DNA of 64,000 nt, taken from positions 4,435 through 68,434 of the forward strand of contig JAZRZN010000103.1 of NCBI GenBank assembly GCA_045601365.1. Direction: 5' to 3'. The notes under the pieces are model-generated. The model ran no database searches. It was given only the letters and a program-made list of their open reading frames with translations, and was not told where the DNA came from. This document shows, one piece after another, positions 56,044-64,000 of the stretch. Position 1 is the first letter of the stretch; the number at the start of each line of letters is the position of its first letter. This DNA comes from Clostridia bacterium. Lineage in GTDB: Bacteria > Bacillota > Clostridia > Christensenellales > QALW01. A program made the position numbers and the translations under genes.

Positions 56044-57570
56044 TTACATTTGCTTTGAAAGCTTGGTAAGAAGTACTTTCCGAGCTTCGTCGGGAAGAGA
56101 AGGATCGGTTGAAAAATGTGAGAAATCTTTTGCAATGCTTTCGGAAAGCTCACGCACTGTTGTGATCCCTTTTGCTTCTGCAAGCTTCAGAAGTTCCCAA
56201 TCCTCAAAGCCCTCAAGTGTGGCAAGATATCGCGCTGACGGATATACGGGCGTTTCTGTGTCACCGGGGTAAATGATATATCCGTCACCTTTGAAGCGGG
56301 CGAGAGGCGAAAGTCCGTACATGTCGGTTCCCCAAAAATTGAAGCCCCAATGCAGAAAACCGTCCATGCGCTGTGAAAAACATGCCCACTCTATAAGGCG
56401 CGGATAGATGAGCGGACGGTCAACGAAATGATTGAGCCACCAATATTCCTCGGGATAGCAACAGCAGTAACACCACAGCTCAGCACCGTTTTGTTTAAGA
56501 CGATGATAAAAATCGGGATCGGTCGCGTAGACTTCGAAGCGGGGAATATAGAAGTCACATTCGCCGTCAAGTCCGACGGACACCGAATGAGTGTCGAGCG
56601 GATCGCCGCACGGAACGCCCGGCATGCATTTTTTGCATTTTTCGTGCGCCCAACGCCACGTTTCGCAGGAATGCGGTTCATCCTGAAGATGCATGCGAAG
56701 CATCGACAGCCATCCCTTTTCCTTGAAATGCTCATAGACAGAGGTAAGGAAAACCTCAGCCCATTCATCGGCTTCTTTTGTTCCGATATCGAGCGGGCGC
56801 TTGCCGCCTGTGCCGTCGGGGGCAAATATTTTGCCGCCTGTGACCGCGTTGCAGAAGTGCGAAACGGTTATATATCTGAATGAACCGTTTTTAAGAAATA
56901 ATTCCGTTACGCGGTCGGCAAGCGAAAAATCGAATTTGCCGTCGGTGAAAGAATCAAAGAATATTTCAAAAGGCAGACGCAGACTGTTTATGCGCAGTGC
57001 TTTCATGCTTTGCGCAAATGCGATAAGCGTATTTTCCCATTGCTTTGAGCCGACGGGATATGCGTACTGCTTGCCTTCGCCGAAGCATGAAAAAATGTCG
57101 AAGAAGTATTCGTGTAATATTGATGAGTTATCGGGTTCGGGCAATGTTACGGGAAAAACATTCAGTGTCCATTCGATGTCTGCATTTTTCTCCGAGGTTT
57201 CGATATGGAGCGTTATACCGTTTTTGCCGATCGGTGCTGTACTGCTGACATCAAATACGAAAAACACCGCTTGTGTGCAATGCGCGGGAACGCTCAGCTC
57301 TTTTAATGCTTCGACCGGGACAAGTCTGTCAGGATACGGAACTTTGTCGGAAAAAATCTCATCACAGGCAAAATATGCTTTGTATGTTACGCCGTCGGGA
57401 ACATCTGCGGCGATGCGGTTTACGGTGAAAGCTTCCCATGAACGAAGCAGAACGCGTCCCGTTACAGTCATGTCAAGCCCGCTGTAAAGCTCAAGAAATT
57501 CTCTTGATGCTTCTTTCGGACGCTCGTTTCTTAAAATGTTTTCACAGCCATTCGCGCTCCAGATAAACAT
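56044..57570 (-). CDS. DUF4091-domain protein (putative glycoside hydrolase), cytoplasmic
   Basis: 508 aa with RBS aaggag. WCYCCCYPEEYWWLNHFVDRPLIYPRLIEWACF...FLHWGFNFW resembles the DUF4091 core. Confidence 0.55.
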   Translation of the reverse strand: MFIWSANGCENILRNERPKEASREFLELYSGLDMTVTGRVLLRSWEAFTVNRIAADVPDGVTYKAYFACDEIFSDKVPYPDRLVPVEALKELSVPAHCTQAVFFVFDVSSTAPIGKNGITLHIETSEKNADIEWTLNVFPVTLPEPDNSSILHEYFFDIFSCFGEGKQYAYPVGSKQWENTLIAFAQSMKALRINSLRLPFEIFFDSFTDGKFDFSLADRVTELFLKNGSFRYITVSHFCNAVTGGKIFAPDGTGGKRPLDIGTKEADEWAEVFLTSVYEHFKEKGWLSMLRMHLQDEPHSCETWRWAHEKCKKCMPGVPCGDPLDTHSVSVGLDGECDFYIPRFEVYATDPDFYHRLKQNGAELWCYCCCYPEEYWWLNHFVDRPLIYPRLIEWACFSQRMDGFLHWGFNFWGTDMYGLSPLARFKGDGYIIYPGDTETPVYPSARYLATLEGFEDWELLKLAEAKGITTVRELSESIAKDFSHFSTDPSLPDEARKVLLTKLSKQM

Positions 57571-57652: not shown

Positions 57653-59017
57653 TCAAGGCTTCATGCTTTTACGGCAAAGCACTTTTACGCAGATCAGCTC
57701 TGCGGTTGCCGTCAAAAACCATGTTATCGGGTAAATTATGAACAGTGACCGCACATCCGAAGAATGTGCGCAAACGGTAAATATCCAAATCAAACGCAGT
57801 ACGCATGCACCTGCAACGGTCATGAGCAAAGCGAGCTTCGGCTTGCCGAGCCCGCAGAGTGAACCGCTTCCTACGTCCATACAGGCGTTGAGAAATTTTC
57901 CCGACAGGAAGAACGTCAACTGCAAAAATGCCGCCGACTTTATGCTTTCACCTATGGCATCGTTTGTGACATAAAGCGAAAGCAGAGGCTTGTTGAAAAG
58001 CATCACGAGCGCAGATAATACGACCGATGTGACAGTGGCGCAAATAAGTGTGATGCGCACGGTATACGGTATGCGTGAATGCCTGTTTGCGCCGATGTTC
58101 TGTCCGATCACGGTTATTGATGTATAGTAGAACGAGGACTGAACAGAGCCGACTATGTTTTCGATATTGGATGCCGCCGATGCGCCTGCAACTATTATCC
58201 CCGCGCCGCCGTCAAAACGGTTCACGGTGGCCTGTATCAGTGTGTTGGAAAATGAGAATACGAGATTTTGCAGACCCGAAGGGATGCCTAACCGCAGAAT
58301 GTCGGACAGCTTGTCTTTTTCAATAAACGGATGTATGAGTGTGAATTTACACGATATGTCCGCACGGTGCATATAGATGCAGATAAGTATCGCCGATATA
58401 ATTTGCGAAAGCGTCGTTGCGATGCCGACGCCGACCGCACCGGTATGAAAAAAGACGACAGCTATTATATTGAATGCTACATTCACTAAACCGGCTACGG
58501 TAAGAAATAACAGGGGATGGCGCGAATCACCCTCCGAACGCAGTGATGCCGCCATTGAATTGTAGATGAGCATTGCGGGCACACCGATGAAATAAGCCTT
58601 CATATACGGGATGGCTTCATCAAGCACTGCCGGAGGTGTATTCATCAGCTCAAGCAGATATCCAGATGCAAAAAAGCCGAACAGACACAGCGCAATGCCG
58701 CATAATAGCGAAATGAAAAACGCCGTGCGTACATACGAAGCCGTATCCTGCCGCCTGTTTGCACCGATGCTCTGCGCTACACATATGCTTACGCCGGTAG
58801 AAAGACCGACAAATGTATTCACTATAAGGTTTATCAGTGCGCCGCATGCGCCTACAGCACCCATTGCAAAGCTTCCGTTTTCAGAGAAGCTTCCGACTAT
58901 TACCATGTCGGCAACATTGTATAGTGTTTGCAACAGCATCGTTGCCATAAGCGGCAGGGCAAAGCGGATCAGGTTTTTGAGTATCGGTCCGTCAGTAAAA
59001 TCAACATCCTTAGCCAT
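57653..59017 (-). CDS. MATE-family efflux transporter
   Basis: 454 aa from ATG 59017. GPILKNLIRFALPLMATMLLQTLYNVADMVIVG is the typical N-terminus. 12 TM spans. Confidence 0.85.
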   Translation of the reverse strand: MAKDVDFTDGPILKNLIRFALPLMATMLLQTLYNVADMVIVGSFSENGSFAMGAVGACGALINLIVNTFVGLSTGVSICVAQSIGANRRQDTASYVRTAFFISLLCGIALCLFGFFASGYLLELMNTPPAVLDEAIPYMKAYFIGVPAMLIYNSMAASLRSEGDSRHPLLFLTVAGLVNVAFNIIAVVFFHTGAVGVGIATTLSQIISAILICIYMHRADISCKFTLIHPFIEKDKLSDILRLGIPSGLQNLVFSFSNTLIQATVNRFDGGAGIIVAGASAASNIENIVGSVQSSFYYTSITVIGQNIGANRHSRIPYTVRITLICATVTSVVLSALVMLFNKPLLSLYVTNDAIGESIKSAAFLQLTFFLSGKFLNACMDVGSGSLCGLGKPKLALLMTVAGACVLRLIWIFTVCAHSSDVRSLFIIYPITWFLTATAELICVKVLCRKSMKP

Positions 59018-59189
59018 TTGCTTTTCCTCACGATAAGAGCAGAACGTATACGCCGAACGGTGCAGCAACAGCTACCGTTTGACGGTGTACATTAAAAAAT
59101 GTGTTTTTTCTGTCAAAAACACTGTACAAATTACAAAATAATAAGTACAATGTACAATAACGGTCAGTTTGAAAGCACAGAATGAGAAA

Positions 59190-60623
59190 TCATTCGACAG
59201 CTATATTTTCACAAAATTCATTCTGCGTTATTTCAAGCGATGCTTTTCTGCCGTTTCGGATAATGTTCCTGAATGTTATTTCCGAGCTTTTATGTTCGTT
59301 GTCGAAGCCGACAATGGACACCTTGAGCGGAAAATTTCCGTATACATTTATGTTCTCGACGGTTATCCCGTGATTCTTGCCGCGGCGAAGTCCCGATGAC
59401 GAGTATTCGGGATGATAGTATACGACTGATTCGAAAAACACGGGGTAATAGCTTCCGTCATCAGTTTCCGGGAATTTGTGTGTATCGGTTTTTTGTAAAA
59501 GCGGAGTGCGGTATTTTTCGTCATATTCTATATTTATATTTCGGAATGTCACGTCGTGGATGTCGGCACAGTCAACATTCTGGCAGTCAAGTATGTTGTG
59601 TGTGGCGTGTATCACATCGCAGTTTTCAAATGTGACGTTGCATATTTCATCGGCGTATGTTTCCGCGCCTATCTCAAGTGATCTGCCCCAATCGTTCCAC
59701 AGTACACAGTCCGAAACGCGAATGTTGTCGAATTTACCGAAATAATCGCCGTTGTGGTGCATGTCGTTTACATCCATCAGGAAATCCCAGCCCTTGACAC
59801 AAATGCAGTCGTCGTACGTGCGGATGAAGCAGTGCGATATCTCAACGTTTTCGCAGTTGTGCATGTCTATGCCGTCGGAATTGTAACGCCAATTTCCCAA
59901 AAGCTTGACGTTGCGGATGCTTACGTTGCGGCATGCGATAGGACGTATATTATATAATAATGAATCGCGGATCATTATTCCGTCGATCTCGATATTGTTG
60001 CAAAATTCAAATACCATTGCATTGGTGCGCGTGGCGTTGAGTATCGCCTTTGCGTTTTCACTGTCCTCAACAGGATAGAGGATATGCTCTTTTGTGTGAC
60101 TGTTGTCAAGTATGCCGTGACCGAGTATGCGGATGTTTTCGGCATCACGGGCAATTACCGAGCCGTAAACGACAGCACCTTCTTCAAGGTAGAGCGTTGT
60201 GTTGCTTTTCAGCTCTATCACTCCGGCTTCGTGAACGCCTTTTTCAAAGCGGATCACATTGCCGGTCAAAGAGTATTCTTCAGCTTCGTCGGCAAAAACA
60301 TGAAGTGCATGATTCCTGCCGTAAGCTTCGACCGTGAAGTATGCGGGCTTATCGAGCGAAAAGTATATTTTTCCGTCTCTTATTTCGGGAATTACGCCCA
60401 GTGATCCCGGACGGATATCGACGTGCGAAAAAGGCTTCTGCGGCGTTATTTCGAAATCAAGCTTTTCGGTATATGTGAACGAAATAAAATCGACAAGCTC
60501 CGTTTGGTCAAGCGGACGCTGATGACCCGGCCAGCGGCGGTTGAACGGCATCGCCGATACTCTTGCGGTGTCGATTTTGACGGGTATGCCGTTGATTTTT
60601 ACGGTATAGTCTGATATATGCAT
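59190..60623 (-). CDS. Glycoside hydrolase family 28-like right-handed beta-helix protein (polygalacturonase/rhamnogalacturonase-like), no signal peptide
   Basis: NSDGIDMHNCENVEISHCFIRTYDDCICVKG contains the GH28-type NxDG and DDC motifs. ATG 60623 lies 10 nt after ggag. Confidence 0.7.
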   Translation of the reverse strand: MHISDYTVKINGIPVKIDTARVSAMPFNRRWPGHQRPLDQTELVDFISFTYTEKLDFEITPQKPFSHVDIRPGSLGVIPEIRDGKIYFSLDKPAYFTVEAYGRNHALHVFADEAEEYSLTGNVIRFEKGVHEAGVIELKSNTTLYLEEGAVVYGSVIARDAENIRILGHGILDNSHTKEHILYPVEDSENAKAILNATRTNAMVFEFCNNIEIDGIMIRDSLLYNIRPIACRNVSIRNVKLLGNWRYNSDGIDMHNCENVEISHCFIRTYDDCICVKGWDFLMDVNDMHHNGDYFGKFDNIRVSDCVLWNDWGRSLEIGAETYADEICNVTFENCDVIHATHNILDCQNVDCADIHDVTFRNINIEYDEKYRTPLLQKTDTHKFPETDDGSYYPVFFESVVYYHPEYSSSGLRRGKNHGITVENINVYGNFPLKVSIVGFDNEHKSSEITFRNIIRNGRKASLEITQNEFCENIAVE

Positions 60624-60685
60624 AATAAACACACTCCTTTTTCTTTATTTTATCGTAATACCGTCAAAAAGTAAAGTGATTTGTA

Positions 60686-60694
60686 TGTTATAAT
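60686..60694 (+). promoter_or_regulatory. Extended -10 element TGtTATAAT upstream of the VTC operon
   Basis: tgttataat at 60686-60694. The -35 region is poor (aaaaag). Confidence 0.4.
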
Positions 60695-60731
60695 CAAAAG
60701 TGTTGAAGAAATCAAAATGCGGGGTGAATAA

Positions 60732-61439
60732 ATGGATAATATCTTTGAAAGAGTCGAAAAAAAGTATATGATGTCGGCTTTACAGTATGAAAAGCTGATG
60801 GAAAAGATAAGTATCCATCTCGTTCCTGCCGAATACGGTAAAAGCACTGTTTGCAGTTTGTATCTTGATACCCCTGACGATTTGCTTATAAGAAATTCCA
60901 TAGACGCAAAGGTTTATAAGGAAAAACTGCGGATACGTTCTTACAGTGAGGCAGGAGAAAACGACGAGGTGTTTTTTGAAATCAAGAAAAAGTACAAAGG
61001 CATCGTGTACAAGCGACGGGAGCAGATGAAGCTGAACGAAATATACCGTTACATAAGTACAGGCAGATTTGAAAAAAACACGCAGATAACGCGCGAGCTT
61101 GATTATGCCATGAAATTCTACGGCATGCCGGTACCGAAAATGTTCATAGCTTATGAACGTCTTGCTTTCAACGTTAAAAATATGCCGGAGCTTCGTATCA
61201 CATTTGATTATGACATCAGATATCGGGATACATTGCTTGAATTCAAAAATACAGGATCGGGTAAAAGGTTACTTGAACCCGGCACGGTGCTTATGGAATT
61301 CAAAACCGAGCGCACAATGCCGCTTTGGCTGTCACACACGCTTGACGAGCTGAAAATATATCATACATCATTTTCGAAATACGCTGCGGCTTACCGCGAT
61401 AAGACCGCAAACGCAGAGGGGGAATATATCTATGCCTGA
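60732..61439 (+). CDS. VTC-domain / triphosphate-tunnel (CYTH-like) protein ('polyphosphate polymerase domain' protein)
   Basis: 235 aa, cytosolic. ERVEKKY, KLRIRSY, FFEIKKKYKGIVYKRRE, LRITFDYDIRYR, VLMEFKTE show alternating charged beta-strands. Confidence 0.75.
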   Translation: MDNIFERVEKKYMMSALQYEKLMEKISIHLVPAEYGKSTVCSLYLDTPDDLLIRNSIDAKVYKEKLRIRSYSEAGENDEVFFEIKKKYKGIVYKRREQMKLNEIYRYISTGRFEKNTQITRELDYAMKFYGMPVPKMFIAYERLAFNVKNMPELRITFDYDIRYRDTLLEFKNTGSGKRLLEPGTVLMEFKTERTMPLWLSHTLDELKIYHTSFSKYAAAYRDKTANAEGEYIYA

Positions 61440-62103
61440 GCTTTTTACTTCAATAACACAAAACGGATTCACACTCGGGAATTACATTATCTGTACAGCC
61501 ATTGCACTTGCATGCGGCATTATAGCGGCTGTAGCGGCAAGCTATAAAAATAATGTTACCAAAAGCTTTACGGTGTCGCTTGTCTTGCTTCCGGCTATAG
61601 TTGAAACGGTAATAATAATGGTAAACGGCAATATCGGCACAGGCGTGGCAGTGATGGGTGCGTTTTCGCTTATCCGTTTTCGCTCGGCGGCAGGTAGGGC
61701 GAAAGACATAGTATCCATTTTCCTTGTGATGACCGCAGGTCTTTCGTGCGCAGGCGGATATGTGGCTATAGCTTTGCTGCTTACGGTTATCGTGTCGGTG
61801 CTTATGATCGTTATCGGCGCGATCCCGCTTAAAGAAGACAGAACGGTGGAAATACATATAACCGTTCCCGAATCGCTCAATTTTAACGGCGTATTTGATG
61901 ATATTTTCAAAAAGTATACCGTTTCAAACGATCTTGTGTCGGTCAAAACCACAAATATGGGCAGTTTGTTCAAATTGAGCTACAGAGCCGAAATGAAGAA
62001 CAAAACAGACATCAAGAGCTTTATTGATGAATTGCGCATGCGCAACGGTAACCTTGAGATATCCGTAATGGAAGCGTCGCGTGGGGGACATGAAGAGCTG
62101 TGA
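61432..62103 (+). CDS. DUF4956-like membrane protein
   Basis: 223 aa with ~4 TM spans, FSLIRFRSAAGRAKDIVSIFLVMTAGL, and a C-terminal ~90-aa soluble domain. 8-nt overlap with the upstream gene. Confidence 0.7.
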   Translation: MPELFTSITQNGFTLGNYIICTAIALACGIIAAVAASYKNNVTKSFTVSLVLLPAIVETVIIMVNGNIGTGVAVMGAFSLIRFRSAAGRAKDIVSIFLVMTAGLSCAGGYVAIALLLTVIVSVLMIVIGAIPLKEDRTVEIHITVPESLNFNGVFDDIFKKYTVSNDLVSVKTTNMGSLFKLSYRAEMKNKTDIKSFIDELRMRNGNLEISVMEASRGGHEEL

Positions 62104-63845
62104 AAAAGATCGTCATACTTACCGTTTGCACCGTGTTCTGTGCGGGGGTGTTTGCATCCTGCGGGACTGCCACGGGCATTGACGGAACAAATACCGAAAG
62201 CACGGCAAATACGTCGGTTTCTGCAAACTATGACTTTACGGAACGGGAGCTTTCCGATAAATATTCCACCGCCGATGCTTCGTATATAGACCTTTCATCA
62301 CTTGAGGTTGCGGGCAAAAATGTATCGGTGAGCGAAAAAAAGATAAGGATAACGGGAGAAGGAACGTTTATAGTTTCCGGCAATAACGGCGACGCAATGA
62401 TATCGGTTGAGGCGAATAAAACCGATAAATTGCAGATAGTGCTTCAAAACGTATCGCTTACAAATAAAAACGGTCCTGCACTGTATGTCAAAAGCGCGGA
62501 TAAAGTTTTCGTAACACTCGACAGCTCAACGGTAAATACGCTTTCCGACGGAGAAAACTACAGCTTTTCCGATGCACAAGGCTCGGCAGACGGTACAGTA
62601 TTCAGCCGTGCAGATATCGCCTTCAACGGTAGCGGAACGCTTAATGTGAACGGCAATTATAAGCACGGCATCGTTTCAAAGGATGAACTTTCACTCGCGC
62701 AGGGAACGTTCAATATAAAGTCGGTAAAGGTCGGAATAAACGGCAAAGACTGTGTTCGCATCGCGGACGGCAGTTTCAATATAGAATCAGGCAGTGACGG
62801 CATGCGCTCGGATAACACGGACGATGCGTTGCGCGGATTCATTTATATCAAAGGCGGAAATCTTGATATCAAAGCCGCAAAGGACGGCATTCAGGCGGAA
62901 AGTGCGATACGCTTCGACGGCGGAACGCTTGCAGCCGATGCTTCGGACGATGCGGTAAAAGCAAGCGGCGATATAAGCATCAACGGAGGGAAAATCTGTA
63001 TTTCCGCGGCAAACGGCGGAATAACCGCAGGCGGAAAGGTCGATTTTGCGGACGGAGATATGAGTATTCTTGAAAGCCGTGAAGGGATCGAGGGTGCATG
63101 CGTCAGCATTTCGGGCGGGCGGATAAGCGTGAATGCATCCGATGACGGCATCAATGCAACGGGTGAAGCCGGCTCACAATCATTCGGCAGAACGCGGAAC
63201 GGTTTTGCCGCAAGCGGTGCCGATGTTACGGTTTCCGGCGGATATCTCTTTATAAATGCGAACGGCGATGGCATTGATTCAAACGGCACATTGAATTTTA
63301 CGGGCGGAATCACGCTGATAAGCGGACCTACCGACAGCGACGACGGTGCGCTTGATTATGAAACCGAATGCAATGTTGACGGCGGTACTGTAGTGGCGCT
63401 CGGTGCATCCGGCATGGCAGAGGGATTCACAAGTGTTGAAAATCAGGGCGGGATATTCACCGATATACCTTCGCAGAAAGGCGGCACTTCGTTCGCGCTG
63501 TGCGATAAAGAGGGAAATGTCATAGTTTCGTTCACACCGCCAAAGGCATATCAGTCAGTGGCGGTAACGGCTCCGGGCATCGTCAGCGGCAAAAGCTATA
63601 CCGTAGTGTGCGGCGGAACGGTCACGGACACAGATGAAAACGGATATACCGAAAATTCATCGGTCAGCGGAGGAGAAAATATTGCCGAAATAGAAATGGT
63701 ATCGAATAATTGTTCTTCCGGAAGACACGGCTTCGGCGGTGACAAAAGAGACGGCATGCCGGAATACGGTATGCCGCAGGCGGATGATAAAATGCCGCCG
63801 GATGATAAAATGCTGCGGAAGCCGGGCGGCACGCAACCTGCATGA
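62100..63845 (+). CDS. Lipoprotein with Cthe_2159-type beta-helix 'carbohydrate-binding' repeats
   Basis: GTG start in a GTGA overlap. Lipobox VFASC. Repeated DG(I/M).S....G.(L/I).(I/F).GG turns, e.g. NGDGIDSNGTLNFTGGITLISGP. Gly/Asp/Pro/Met-rich tail. Confidence 0.6.
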   Translation: MKKIVILTVCTVFCAGVFASCGTATGIDGTNTESTANTSVSANYDFTERELSDKYSTADASYIDLSSLEVAGKNVSVSEKKIRITGEGTFIVSGNNGDAMISVEANKTDKLQIVLQNVSLTNKNGPALYVKSADKVFVTLDSSTVNTLSDGENYSFSDAQGSADGTVFSRADIAFNGSGTLNVNGNYKHGIVSKDELSLAQGTFNIKSVKVGINGKDCVRIADGSFNIESGSDGMRSDNTDDALRGFIYIKGGNLDIKAAKDGIQAESAIRFDGGTLAADASDDAVKASGDISINGGKICISAANGGITAGGKVDFADGDMSILESREGIEGACVSISGGRISVNASDDGINATGEAGSQSFGRTRNGFAASGADVTVSGGYLFINANGDGIDSNGTLNFTGGITLISGPTDSDDGALDYETECNVDGGTVVALGASGMAEGFTSVENQGGIFTDIPSQKGGTSFALCDKEGNVIVSFTPPKAYQSVAVTAPGIVSGKSYTVVCGGTVTDTDENGYTENSSVSGGENIAEIEMVSNNCSSGRHGFGGDKRDGMPEYGMPQADDKMPPDDKMLRKPGGTQPA

Positions 63846-64000
63846 ACAACCGGCGACGGAAAAACGGTGCATTTTGACAAAAAAAGCTGTGTTAAAACAA
63901 AATTCATAAATTATTCTTCAAAAACCGCTTGTCAAAAAGTAAAAAAGGTAATATAATTGCAAAGCACTCTTGAGGGGAGGGGAAGCGAAAGCGGAACCGA

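Follow-up and report, generated by a model that had tools for sequence, protein, structure and literature searches.

Exactly three ORFs, all co-directional on the + strand, were listed in the 60686-63845 region of the window (the whole 64,000-nucleotide stretch that was analyzed). Based on a Pfam search, they belong to the VTC (gene 1), DUF4956 (gene 2), and Cthe_2159 (gene 3) families, each above the curated cut-offs, which bears out the VTC, DUF4956, and beta-helix assignments of the sequence-only reading. The features of the region are as follows.

60686-60694, + strand: putative promoter-like extended -10 element TGTTATAAT, from direct sequence reading
60732-61439, + strand: gene 1, 235 aa, start ATG
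61432-62103, + strand: gene 2, 223 aa, start ATG
62100-63845, + strand: gene 3, 581 aa, start GTG
62100-62162, + strand: predicted lipoprotein signal peptide of gene 3, MKKIVILTVCTVFCAGVFAS followed by C, with lipobox F18-A19-S20-C21, from the translation

The ORF listing and the sequence itself agree with the gene overlaps described earlier: genes 1 and 2 share 8 nt (61432-61439, ATGCCTGA), and genes 2 and 3 share 4 nt (62100-62103, GTGA). Among relatives, 8 nt and 4 nt were likewise the most frequent overlap lengths (28 and 17 loci, respectively), and a purine-rich Shine-Dalgarno-like run is located upstream of the start of all three genes. As part of the interpretation favored below, the three genes would form one translationally coupled operon. 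The extended -10 motif lies within the 99-bp divergent intergenic region between gene 1 and a GH28 gene on the - strand. A simple consensus promoter scan left it out for want of a good -35 hexamer. The interval previously assigned to the locus starts at 60686, i.e., at the first base of this motif.

Gene 1 matched the VTC family (E = 2.3e-36; protein residues 7 to 221), and no CYTH-type family was found among its Pfam matches. It encodes a stand-alone cytosolic domain lacking both an SPX domain and a membrane segment, and its AlphaFold model (mean pLDDT, 91.9) has the triphosphate tunnel fold. Peptides ERVEKKY, FFEIKKKYKGIVYKRRE, LRITFDYDIRYR, and LMEFKTE, which had been quoted as the signature of such enzymes, are all present in gene 1, on predicted beta strands 1, 4-5, 7, and 8. 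The 13 best PDB matches in a Foldseek search were all yeast Vtc4, Vtc3, or Vtc2 (E, about 6e-13 to 7e-10; best TM score, 0.74), and CyaB/CYTH-type tunnel enzymes ranked only after them (E, 1e-7 to 1e-5; TM, about 0.45-0.57). CYTH/CyaB-ThTPase enzymes (PDB 3sy3, 2gfg, 5a60 YgiF, and 7ns8) share the tunnel superfold and one strand-1 motif glutamate with gene 1 but lack the VTC-specific extra helices and are about 60 residues shorter. The Vtc4 sequence, first verified against PDB 3g3q/8i6v, was aligned to gene 1 with hhalign (Vtc4 196-480; E = 1.8e-6; 216 columns). The two share only about 17-22% identity, and all nine Vtc4 residues essential for polyphosphate (polyP) synthesis are identical in gene 1. 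The predicted catalytic residues of gene 1 in the hhalign pairing are the following.

K11, paired with Vtc4 K200
R67, paired with Vtc4 R264
R69, paired with Vtc4 R266
K85, paired with Vtc4 K281
Y141, paired with Vtc4 Y359
R143, paired with Vtc4 R361
E189, paired with Vtc4 E426
S215, paired with Vtc4 S457
K216, paired with Vtc4 K458

These positions, which include the tunnel Lys, Arg, and Glu residues, were either invariant or conserved to 90% or more across an alignment of 35 homologues. Gene 1 is a VTC-type triphosphate-tunnel enzyme with a complete Vtc4 active site. In cryo-EM work on the VTC complex, the nine Vtc4 residues coordinate triphosphate and Mn2+ and are needed for cellular polyP, and K458 is the single one of them that is replaced in the noncatalytic Vtc2 and Vtc3 (bioRxiv 10.1101/2023.01.27.525886).

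A polymerase activity of gene 1 would be consistent with this conservation, but tunnel enzymes with similar residues catalyze other reactions, e.g., as a triphosphatase or a cyclase. In addition, strand 1 of the bacterial clade reads R7-x-E9-x-K11, with E9 at least 90% conserved, whereas Vtc4 has R-x-T-x-K; the glutamate makes strand 1 more like the ExExK motif seen in CYTH hydrolases. It is therefore conceivable, if doubtful, that gene 1 is a nonpolymerizing tunnel enzyme, hydrolytic or otherwise (for example, a triphosphatase, a polyphosphatase, or an enzyme that modifies nucleotides), and that no polymer crosses the membrane. Gene 1 would then act on, or be regulated by, DUF4956, with the latter serving as a small regulatory, sensory, or ion-handling membrane protein that has a cytoplasmic ACT-like ligand-binding domain. 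That CYTH-type enzymes are the next-best structural matches fits this alternative. However, VTC domains matched clearly better than the hydrolytic tunnel enzymes (E about 1e-13 versus 1e-7), the identity of all nine residues extends to K458, which is dispensable in noncatalytic paralogues, and the consistent co-transcription of an exported lipoprotein or CotH is left unexplained.

Gene 2 matched DUF4956 with an E value of 1.2e-12. It had been described as a DUF4956-like protein with ~4 transmembrane helices and a soluble C-terminal domain; the family and the domain stand, but five membrane helices are predicted (residues 15-37, 44-63, 68-85, 90-108, and 111-130). Lys and Arg are restricted to alternate loops, and this positive-inside pattern puts the C-terminal domain (138-214), which is ferredoxin/ACT-like, in the cytoplasm. 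The AlphaFold model is of moderate confidence (mean pLDDT, 74). Foldseek returned only weak ACT/CutA/S6/MgtC-C-like matches, all to the C-terminal domain (E, 0.005-0.03), and no significant structural neighbor of the membrane part. An ACT-like fold is typical of small-molecule sensors and thus speaks for the nonpolymerizing alternative, as does the layout of five helices and a cytoplasmic ACT-like domain, which resembles that of MgtC; nevertheless, the Pfam MgtC family was undetected in gene 2 even at E values of up to 10. The sequence-only reading had also extended to DUF4956 the logic of the yeast VTC channel, which threads the nascent polymer. This did not hold: hhalign revealed no homology between DUF4956 and the channel subunit Vtc1 (probability, 0.3%), and no VTC chain was among the 50 Foldseek matches listed for gene 2. 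Because DUF4956 shows neither homology nor a fold match to the yeast channel, a channel threading the polymer stays an analogy, and the missing homology is a further point in favor of a nonpolymerizing gene 1. The 35-sequence alignment of gene 2 contains the invariant motif VNGNxGTGxAxxGAFSLxRFRS.

The match of gene 3 to Cthe_2159 comprises three stretches (E = 8.3e-79), and residues 74-297 align to the Cthe_2159 crystal structure (PDB 4peu; E = 2.1e-33), in line with the lipobox and Cthe_2159-type beta-helix noticed before. After removal of the signal peptide, the mature protein would begin with a lipidated Cys21. Gene 3 shares the Pfam family, the right-handed beta-helix, and the pectate-lyase superfamily with Cthe_2159 of Clostridium thermocellum (PDB 4peu/4phb) but is about twice as long, starts with a lipoprotein signal, ends in a disordered tail rich in Pro, Asp, and Lys, and belongs to a subfamily tied to VTC-DUF4956. 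A lipobox-like motif was identified by a regular expression in 47 of the 53 adjacent gene 3 homologues, and most others looked similar by eye. The mature protein is acidic (calculated pI, 4.3), and gene 3 and its homologues are strongly acidic as a group (pI 4.0-4.6). This speaks against a polyanion being captured by charge alone; without bridging cations, such proteins and polyP would repel each other.

The neighborhood was surveyed in 80 species-level relatives, with counts made over 78 (VTC) and 75 (Cthe_2159) loci. In 71/78 loci, the gene immediately before DUF4956 was VTC. Cthe_2159 came immediately after DUF4956 in 53/75 and was no more than 6 kb away in 61/75, being missing within that distance in about a fifth. 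Six gene 3 homologues were chosen independently, long contigs being the sole criterion, and five of them were directly behind VTC-DUF4956. The synteny of the trio, proposed earlier as a conserved neighborhood, holds starting from either end, and its order is kept across dozens of species, beyond chance. These counts weigh strongly against gene 3 being a mere pectin- or cellulose-binding lipoprotein that partners the divergent GH28 pectinase-like gene and has a meaningless place behind VTC-DUF4956. Such a role is suggested by the family, which binds cellulose and polygalacturonic acid according to the passage of bioRxiv 10.1101/401869 that cites Close et al. 2014, by the GH28 gene 99 bp upstream on the opposite strand in both the window and the closest relative, and by other glycoside hydrolases (GH123) detected by the Pfam search near the operon in the window. 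However, a GH28 homologue occurs within 8 kb at only 1/80 related loci, and the modal overlap of Cthe_2159 with DUF4956 is 4 nt, making this explanation very improbable.

The VTC-DUF4956 pair is the constant core. It is also constant in distant relatives, in which the exported partner varies (CotH or PLD-like); no VTC match adjoined two distant DUF4956 genes, in Hymenobacter and Nonomuraea. The census of third genes suggested earlier gave Cthe_2159 in close relatives, where CotH was within 8 kb at 0/80 loci (none was near the operon in the window, either), and CotH in distant ones. The distant loci are often inside glycosyltransferase-rich envelope clusters: the order is GT2-CotH-VTC-DUF4956-GT4-acyltransferase-pyruvyl transferases in Pseudobutyrivibrio, VTC-DUF4956-RR-HK-CotH in E. 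faecalis, and VTC-DUF4956-CotH-hypothetical-HEAT-glycosyltransferase in Planococcus, the last of which mirrors C. perfringens NELoc-2. Gene 2 shares only about 25-28% identity with the DUF4956 proteins from CotH-type loci. The VTC/DUF4956/CotH neighborhood has already been noted in papers: clusters of CotH, a "polyphosphate polymerase," and DUF4956 (/DUF4832) are located beside Gram-positive pel operons (Whitfield et al., bioRxiv 10.1101/768473) and in NELoc-2 (PMC2879425). The locus described here shares with them an adjacent, co-directional core and an exported third protein; Cthe_2159 as the third partner is the variant here, and the triad is usually outside a glycosyltransferase cluster.

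Such envelope-polymer clusters, together with the contiguity to pel operons, suggest another role, in which VTC-DUF4956 supplies phosphoryl groups outside the membrane, as exported short polyP or another phospho-carrier, and an extracytoplasmic partner (a CotH kinase in other clades and Cthe_2159 here) modifies wall polysaccharide or surface proteins. The operon would then act as a module for envelope modification, not as a store or coat of polyP. NAGPA "phosphodiester glycosidase" genes, recurrent beside the triad (5/80 loci plus locus L092), also point in this direction. We regard this role as unlikely: CotH is absent within 8 kb in the 80 close relatives and near the operon in the window, the flanks of the triad are otherwise variable and usually devoid of glycosyltransferases, Cthe_2159 has no known transferase activity, being reported only as a binder, and the donor chemistry is pure speculation.

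Our preferred reading, to which we assign a probability of about 0.42, is an envelope-associated bacterial VTC-type polyphosphate machine at the membrane, possibly exporting its product. Gene 1 would most likely bind a nucleoside triphosphate and Mn2+/Mg2+ in its tunnel and lengthen polyP by transfer of the gamma-phosphate. Gene 2, made in fixed proportion via the overlapping reading frame, would be the membrane partner: its ACT-like domain could dock the tunnel enzyme, and its Gly-rich, Arg-bearing membrane motif (VNGNxGTG...GAFSLxRFRS) could take up the anionic product, which would then either stay at the membrane or cross it through an oligomeric conduit formed by gene 2. Gene 3, anchored on the extracellular side of the membrane, may bind the product there or process it, probably via bridging Ca2+/Mg2+. 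In keeping with an earlier statement that the product of a bacterial VTC/DUF4956 pair is nowhere experimentally defined, we found in the literature no such product and no biochemical study or activity data on any bacterial VTC member.

As in the yeast VTC complex (Vtc4; PDB 3g3q/3g3r, 7ytj, and 8i6v), an eight-stranded tunnel enzyme is genetically coupled to a membrane protein. In contrast to yeast, gene 1 has no fused three-helix DUF202 membrane domain, the membrane partner is unrelated to Vtc1, the third component is a surface lipoprotein, and what lies across the membrane is the outside of the cell instead of the vacuole. Bacterial polyphosphate kinases PPK1 and PPK2 have the same presumed product, polyP from nucleoside triphosphate, but are unrelated to gene 1 in fold and family and make cytoplasmic granules uncoupled from a surface protein. 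In reviews, PPK counts as the prokaryotic enzyme type and VTC as the eukaryotic one (PMC12526157); here, a "eukaryotic" VTC catalytic domain with its key residues intact stands alone in an operon of a gut Clostridia bacterium.

A two-component system adjoins the triad at about half of the loci, and the triad with such a system also occurs in Paenibacillus (Bacilli). This OmpR-type system may control the operon in many relatives. One locus has Cthe_2159 and the two-component system but neither VTC nor DUF4956.

Three co-directional ORFs on the plus strand at the 3' end of the window encode proteins that match Pfam families VTC, DUF4956, and Cthe_2159, the same three families that a sequence-only reading had assigned by eye; the peptide strings quoted in that reading were all found in the sequence. 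The three genes (from the ORF listing) and their surroundings are as follows.

56044-57570, minus strand, GH123-like gene, upstream of the operon
57653-59068, minus strand, MATE efflux transporter gene, upstream of the operon
59190-60632, minus strand, GH28-like beta-helix gene, divergent from gene 1
60686-60694, putative extended -10 motif TGTTATAAT in the 99-bp intergenic region upstream of gene 1, read from the sequence
60732-61439, plus strand, gene 1, 235 amino acids, VTC
61432-62103, plus strand, gene 2, 223 amino acids, DUF4956
62100-63845, plus strand, gene 3, 581 amino acids, GTG start, Cthe_2159

Both of the overlaps claimed previously, of 8 nt between genes 1 and 2 (ATCT-ATG-CC-TGA-G) and of 4 nt between genes 2 and 3 (GAGCT-GTGA-AAAAG), are present in the junction sequences, and a G-rich, ribosome-binding-like run precedes the start of each gene. 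The start of the stretch singled out in the sequence-only reading coincides with the extended -10 motif at 60686-60694. No riboswitch or other RNA family was detected in an Rfam search of positions 60300 to 64000, and no NCBIfam model matched any of the three proteins. A reading of the trio as an anti-phage defence system was rejected, as PADLOC models gave no match for any of the three proteins. Homologues carry generic annotations, namely, "polyphosphate polymerase domain-containing protein" for gene 1, "DUF4956 domain-containing protein" for gene 2, and "carbohydrate-binding domain-containing protein" for gene 3.

The product of gene 1 matched Pfam VTC (PF09359) with 125.9 bits (gathering cutoff, 23; E = 2.3e-36) over residues 7 to 221, corresponding to profile positions 2 to 231 of 235. 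VTC was the only Pfam domain found in its 235 amino acids, the N-terminal SPX domain through which inositol pyrophosphates control the eukaryotic VTC subunits being absent, and the protein has no membrane segment, nor a DUF202-type three-helix domain like those of Vtc1 and of the C termini of Vtc2/3/4 that build the VTC channel. The AlphaFold model of gene 1, built on 35 homologues, had a mean pLDDT of 91.9. In a Foldseek search with this model, ranks 1 to 13 were occupied exclusively by the tunnel domains of Vtc4, Vtc3, and Vtc2 (E = 6e-13 to 7e-10), the top match being Vtc4 (3g3r; E = 6e-13; TM, 0.74), and CYTH/CyaB-type tunnel enzymes appeared only from rank 14 on (E, ~1e-7; TM, ~0.53), which bears out the proposed relationship to VTC. 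Searches of the PDB by phmmer with the single sequences of genes 1 and 2 returned only noise. The 35-sequence profile of gene 1 reached Vtc4 in the PDB (E = 0.002) with an alignment of residues 10 to 169 only, i.e., the first two-thirds of the protein, and a C-terminal-only profile did not recover the Vtc4 C terminus.

The gene 1 family alignment was compared by hhalign with Vtc4 residues 196 to 480, using a sequence that is 100% identical to 3g3q_A and to residues 196 to 480 of 8i6v_E and a numbering that matches every residue named in the literature. Over 216 aligned columns (E = 1.8e-6), nine active-site residues were identical (gene 1/Vtc4): K11/K200, R67/R264, R69/R266, K85/K281, Y141/Y359, R143/R361, E189/E426, S215/S457, and K216/K458, the last in the motif F-S-K-[YF]. 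Further pairs were K94/K294, R155/R373, and K191/K428. All nine residues are invariant or at least 90% conserved among the 35 bacterial homologues, and K216 is invariant in the family alignment. In Vtc4, the nine residues coordinate triphosphate and Mn2+, and mutating them lowers cellular polyphosphate (polyP); K458 is the sole one of the nine that is replaced (by Ile or Leu) in the noncatalytic Vtc2 and Vtc3 (bioRxiv 10.1101/2023.01.27.525886). The minimal protein encoded by gene 1, which differs from Vtc4 in having neither an SPX nor a membrane domain, is predicted to have a full Vtc4-type active site, in which it probably binds a triphosphate substrate and turns it over.

Hydrolytic CYTH tunnel enzymes carry an N-terminal ExExK metal-binding motif in strand 1. 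Strand 1 of gene 1 (residues 5 to 12; window positions 60732 to 60770) reads F-E-R-V-E-K-K-Y, and its R7-V-E9-K-K11 aligns with R196-Q-T198-T-K200 of Vtc4, so that one of the two CYTH glutamates is retained and Arg stands in place of the other, as it does in Vtc4. The R-x-E-x-K pattern, with at least 90% conservation across the bacterial clade, partly recalls ExExK and lies between the CYTH motif and the R-x-T-x-K of Vtc4, from which gene 1 differs by the strand-1 glutamate. The main rival explanation is a non-polymerising tunnel enzyme that works with a membrane sensor or regulator; the strand-1 glutamate speaks for it and the nine conserved Vtc4 residues speak against it, and we regard the rival as unlikely.

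Gene 2 matched Pfam DUF4956 (PF16316) with 48.4 bits (gathering cutoff, 30.6; E = 1e-12). This match is confined to the membrane part (residues 30 to 128; profile positions 6 to 107 of 169), indicating divergence of the C-terminal domain within this clade. The gene 2 model, of moderate confidence (pLDDT, 74), contains five helices (residues 15 to 37, 44 to 63, 68 to 85, 90 to 108, and 111 to 130) followed by a beta-alpha-beta-beta-alpha-beta domain (138 to 214). Thus, the DUF4956 assignment and the soluble C-terminal domain suggested previously are both retained, whereas the number of transmembrane helices is raised from about four to five. Lys and Arg are restricted to the 1-2 loop, the 3-4 loop, and the region after helix 5, so that, by the positive-inside rule, the N terminus is predicted to lie outside and the C-terminal domain in the cytoplasm (N-out, C-in), facing gene 1. 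In the alignment, VNGNxGTGxAxxGAFSLxRFRS forms an invariant block, and a strand in the C-terminal part, RNGNLEI, is conserved.

Foldseek gave no match for the gene 2 membrane part and weak ferredoxin/ACT/CutA/S6/MgtC-C-like matches (E = 0.005 to 0.03) for the C-terminal domain. Membership in the MgtC/SapB family was not supported: Pfam MgtC was undetected even at E values of up to 10, and the resemblance is confined to the C-terminal fold, which is weakly similar to the MgtC C-domain (2lqj; E = 0.029). Comparison of gene 2 with yeast Vtc1 (PDB-verified sequence) by hhalign yielded a probability of 0.3%, and there were no VTC chains among the 50 Foldseek matches listed for gene 2. Judged by length, no VTC-DUF4956 fusions occur among the best 120 or 150 homologues (150 for DUF4956). 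Gene 2 is unrelated to the VTC channel. The idea that the trio follows the same logic as yeast VTC, with the functions distributed over separate proteins, is therefore supported by the coupling of the genes rather than by a homologous membrane part. The DUF4956 family comprises 4589 representatives at 50% identity with E values of 1e-3 or lower, 430 of them with E values of 1e-30 or lower, and gene 1 has more than 4,000 homologues.

Gene 3 matched Pfam Cthe_2159 (PF14262) with 265 bits (E = 8e-79), and its residues 74 to 297 matched the founding crystal structure (PDB 4peu; E = 2e-33). Together with a signal peptide, MKKIVILTVCTVFCAGVFAS-C21, that ends in a predicted lipobox, F-A-S-C21, this agrees with the lipobox and the Cthe_2159-type beta-helix recognized by eye. 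A lipobox-like motif was found by regular expression in 47 of the 53 gene 3 homologues adjoining DUF4956, most of the others being similar by eye, and the calculated pI is 4.0 to 4.6 in all 53. On these sequence features, gene 3 is predicted to encode an acidic surface lipoprotein. Its acidity would make direct capture of polyP hard, and bridging cations would be needed. Binding of cellulose and polygalacturonate is reported for the founding Cthe_2159 protein only, and this protein is similar to PL9 pectate lyases (Close et al. 2014, cited in bioRxiv 10.1101/401869).

The conservation of this arrangement was assessed by a pattern scan with one genome per species, in which at least 581 species had a DUF4956 relative. 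The 80 best loci, all from Clostridia and representing the closest relatives only, were taken for a census, in which HMMs derived from the three proteins in the window were run against every ORF. VTC lies directly upstream of DUF4956 in 71 of 78 loci, and Cthe_2159 lies directly downstream in 53 of 75 and within 6 kb in 61 of 75. The commonest overlaps are 8 nt for VTC/DUF4956 (28 loci) and 4 nt for DUF4956/Cthe_2159 (17 loci), both counts being approximate as they use the longest-ORF start. In the reverse direction, five of six gene 3 homologues (39% to 43% identical and chosen solely for their long contigs) were located directly behind VTC-DUF4956; at the sixth locus, the Cthe_2159 lipoprotein gene is accompanied by a two-component system (L093:6876-8776) and there is no VTC or DUF4956 gene. 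Conservation of the neighbourhood was thus found from both sides. Native or cultured carriers of the operon include Paenibacillus cellulosilyticus, Ligaoa zhengdingensis, Mobilisporobacter senegalensis, and Ruminococcus sp. YE282. The trio is a real, conserved, and uncharacterised system and very probably a functional module, and the synteny effectively excludes that gene 3 is an incidental neighbour. In one of the five (L094:3607-4352), two ORFs of 139 and 108 amino acids take the place of a single VTC gene before intact DUF4956 and Cthe_2159 genes, probably through a frameshift that reflects either a pseudogene or an assembly error.

The genes flanking the trio are otherwise variable, except for two kinds. 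An OmpR-type response regulator (RR) and a histidine kinase (HK) of ~410 amino acids adjoin the trio in 29 of 61 loci, and no such two-component system adjoins the operon in the window. Their position varies from upstream to divergent to convergent downstream (other examples are L042:5104-7034, L032:5182-7133, and L091:6886-8795). NAGPA "phosphodiester glycosidase" genes occur near the trio in 5 of 80 loci (e.g., L072:8704-9708 and L077:8650-10680) and also at L092:7086-9410, a recurrence that may point to a connection with wall polymers containing phosphodiesters. In L072 and L077, the NAGPA gene is located between DUF4956 and Cthe_2159; in L077, the same protein contains GT2 and GtrA domains in addition to the NAGPA domain, as a fusion, and the L092 protein carries a dockerin. 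The GH28 neighbour was found in only 1 of 80 loci, that of the closest relative (L002), whose contig ends soon after gene 3. GH28 was consequently rejected as a functional partner, leaving a pectin-related reading of gene 3 without synteny support.

None of the ORFs in the 80 close loci matched CotH. Distant examples were collected by tblastn of a plasmid/chromid collection with gene 2, which gave seven records with the following gene orders.

Paenibacillus cellulosilyticus: HK/RR (divergent), VTC-DUF4956-Cthe_2159
Acetoanaerobium: RR-HK-VTC-DUF4956-PLD/cardiolipin-synthase-like
E. faecalis: VTC-DUF4956-RR-HK-CotH
Planococcus: VTC-DUF4956-CotH-hypothetical-HEAT-glycosyltransferase
Pseudobutyrivibrio: GT2-CotH-VTC-DUF4956-GT4-acyltransferase...pyruvyl transferases
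Nonomuraea: DUF4956-CotH
Hymenobacter: DUF4956 near a two-component system, without a VTC match

CotH is present in four of these distant relatives. The choice between a Cthe_2159 lipoprotein and CotH as the third gene, raised in the sequence-only reading, falls to Cthe_2159 in this clade and mostly to CotH in distant clades, in a sample that covers 80 close loci and seven distant records. The VTC-DUF4956 pair is the constant core. In Acetoanaerobium noterae (L082:7681-9237), a PLD/cardiolipin-synthase-like protein with PLDc_N and two PLD domains replaces Cthe_2159 or CotH. CotH-type clusters also contain a conserved protein of ~685 to 689 amino acids without a Pfam match (L084:8011-10080 in Planococcus; C. 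perfringens CP4_0466), a further conserved and uncharacterised partner of the VTC-DUF4956 pair; genes for a HEAT-repeat protein and a glycosyltransferase come next.

Related clusters have been described before. A CotH/"polyphosphate polymerase"/DUF4956/DUF4832 accessory cluster was noted, without functional work, beside Gram-positive pel operons (Whitfield et al., bioRxiv 10.1101/768473). In C. perfringens NELoc-2, VTC-domain genes are paired with membrane proteins of 222 to 226 amino acids misannotated as "tubulin/FtsZ GTPase," and one such pair is directly followed by CotH (PMC2879425). A variant of the polyP model, in which the pair supplies enzymes outside the cytoplasm, CotH among them, with phosphoryl groups, is favoured by the clusters in which CotH adjoins the pair and disfavoured by the operon in the window, near which there is no CotH gene; we consider it improbable.

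The proposal of a split polyP polymerase/exporter came through every test that could be run here, and its functional core is predicted. By family, the trio would consist of a VTC polyphosphate polymerase without SPX, a separate and nonhomologous membrane partner, and, linked to these, a surface lipoprotein. We estimate the probability that the product is polyP at about 0.5. It is somewhat doubtful that DUF4956 carries the product across the membrane and quite unlikely that the lipoprotein receives it.

No published biochemistry was found on DUF4956, "VTC domain," CotH with polyphosphate polymerase, or bacterial VTC; the other mentions examined were entries in omics or mutation lists. Reviews divide polyP synthases into prokaryotic PPK and eukaryotic VTC (PMC12526157), and a survey of VTC distribution covered eukaryotes only. 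The bacterial VTC domain described here keeps every residue needed for polyP synthesis; it belongs to a sizeable family and is firmly coupled to both a membrane and an exported protein. If polyP is made, the trio would represent a new pathway to polyP in bacteria, one that is common among Clostridia of the gut and rumen, would provide functions for two large domains, DUF4956 and the Cthe_2159-type lipoproteins, could explain the CotH/VTC/DUF4956 clusters beside biofilm (pel) loci and at the NELoc-2 locus associated with necrotic enteritis in C. perfringens, and would have implications for how the eukaryotic VTC complex arose. As the system comprises only three genes, the question is directly testable.

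A broader and speculative possibility, unlikely as a whole, is that many Firmicutes have a third, VTC-type polyP route at the cytoplasmic membrane that delivers polyP to the cell surface. DUF4956 would then be a new polyP conduit, and the exported partners (the Cthe_2159 lipoprotein here and the CotH kinase in other loci) would be the first proteins outside the cytoplasm dedicated to binding or using polyP. If so, these bacteria would possess an inorganic polyanion coat resembling teichoic acid or an external donor of phosphoryl groups or energy, and the prokaryotic ancestor of the eukaryotic VTC polymerase would be identified.

Some minor elements were also seen at the 3' end of the operon. 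The region encoding the C-terminal tail of gene 3 (63780-63842) contains a short direct repeat, GATGATAAAATGCC/GATGATAAAATGCT, which encodes DDKMPP/DDKML and sits in a disordered Pro/Asp/Lys-rich tail. No clear intrinsic terminator was seen after gene 3. A near-consensus promoter-like site, TTGTCA-17-TATAAT (11/12), is located at 63929-63957, 85 nt past the gene 3 stop, and is directed towards a gene beyond the window end.
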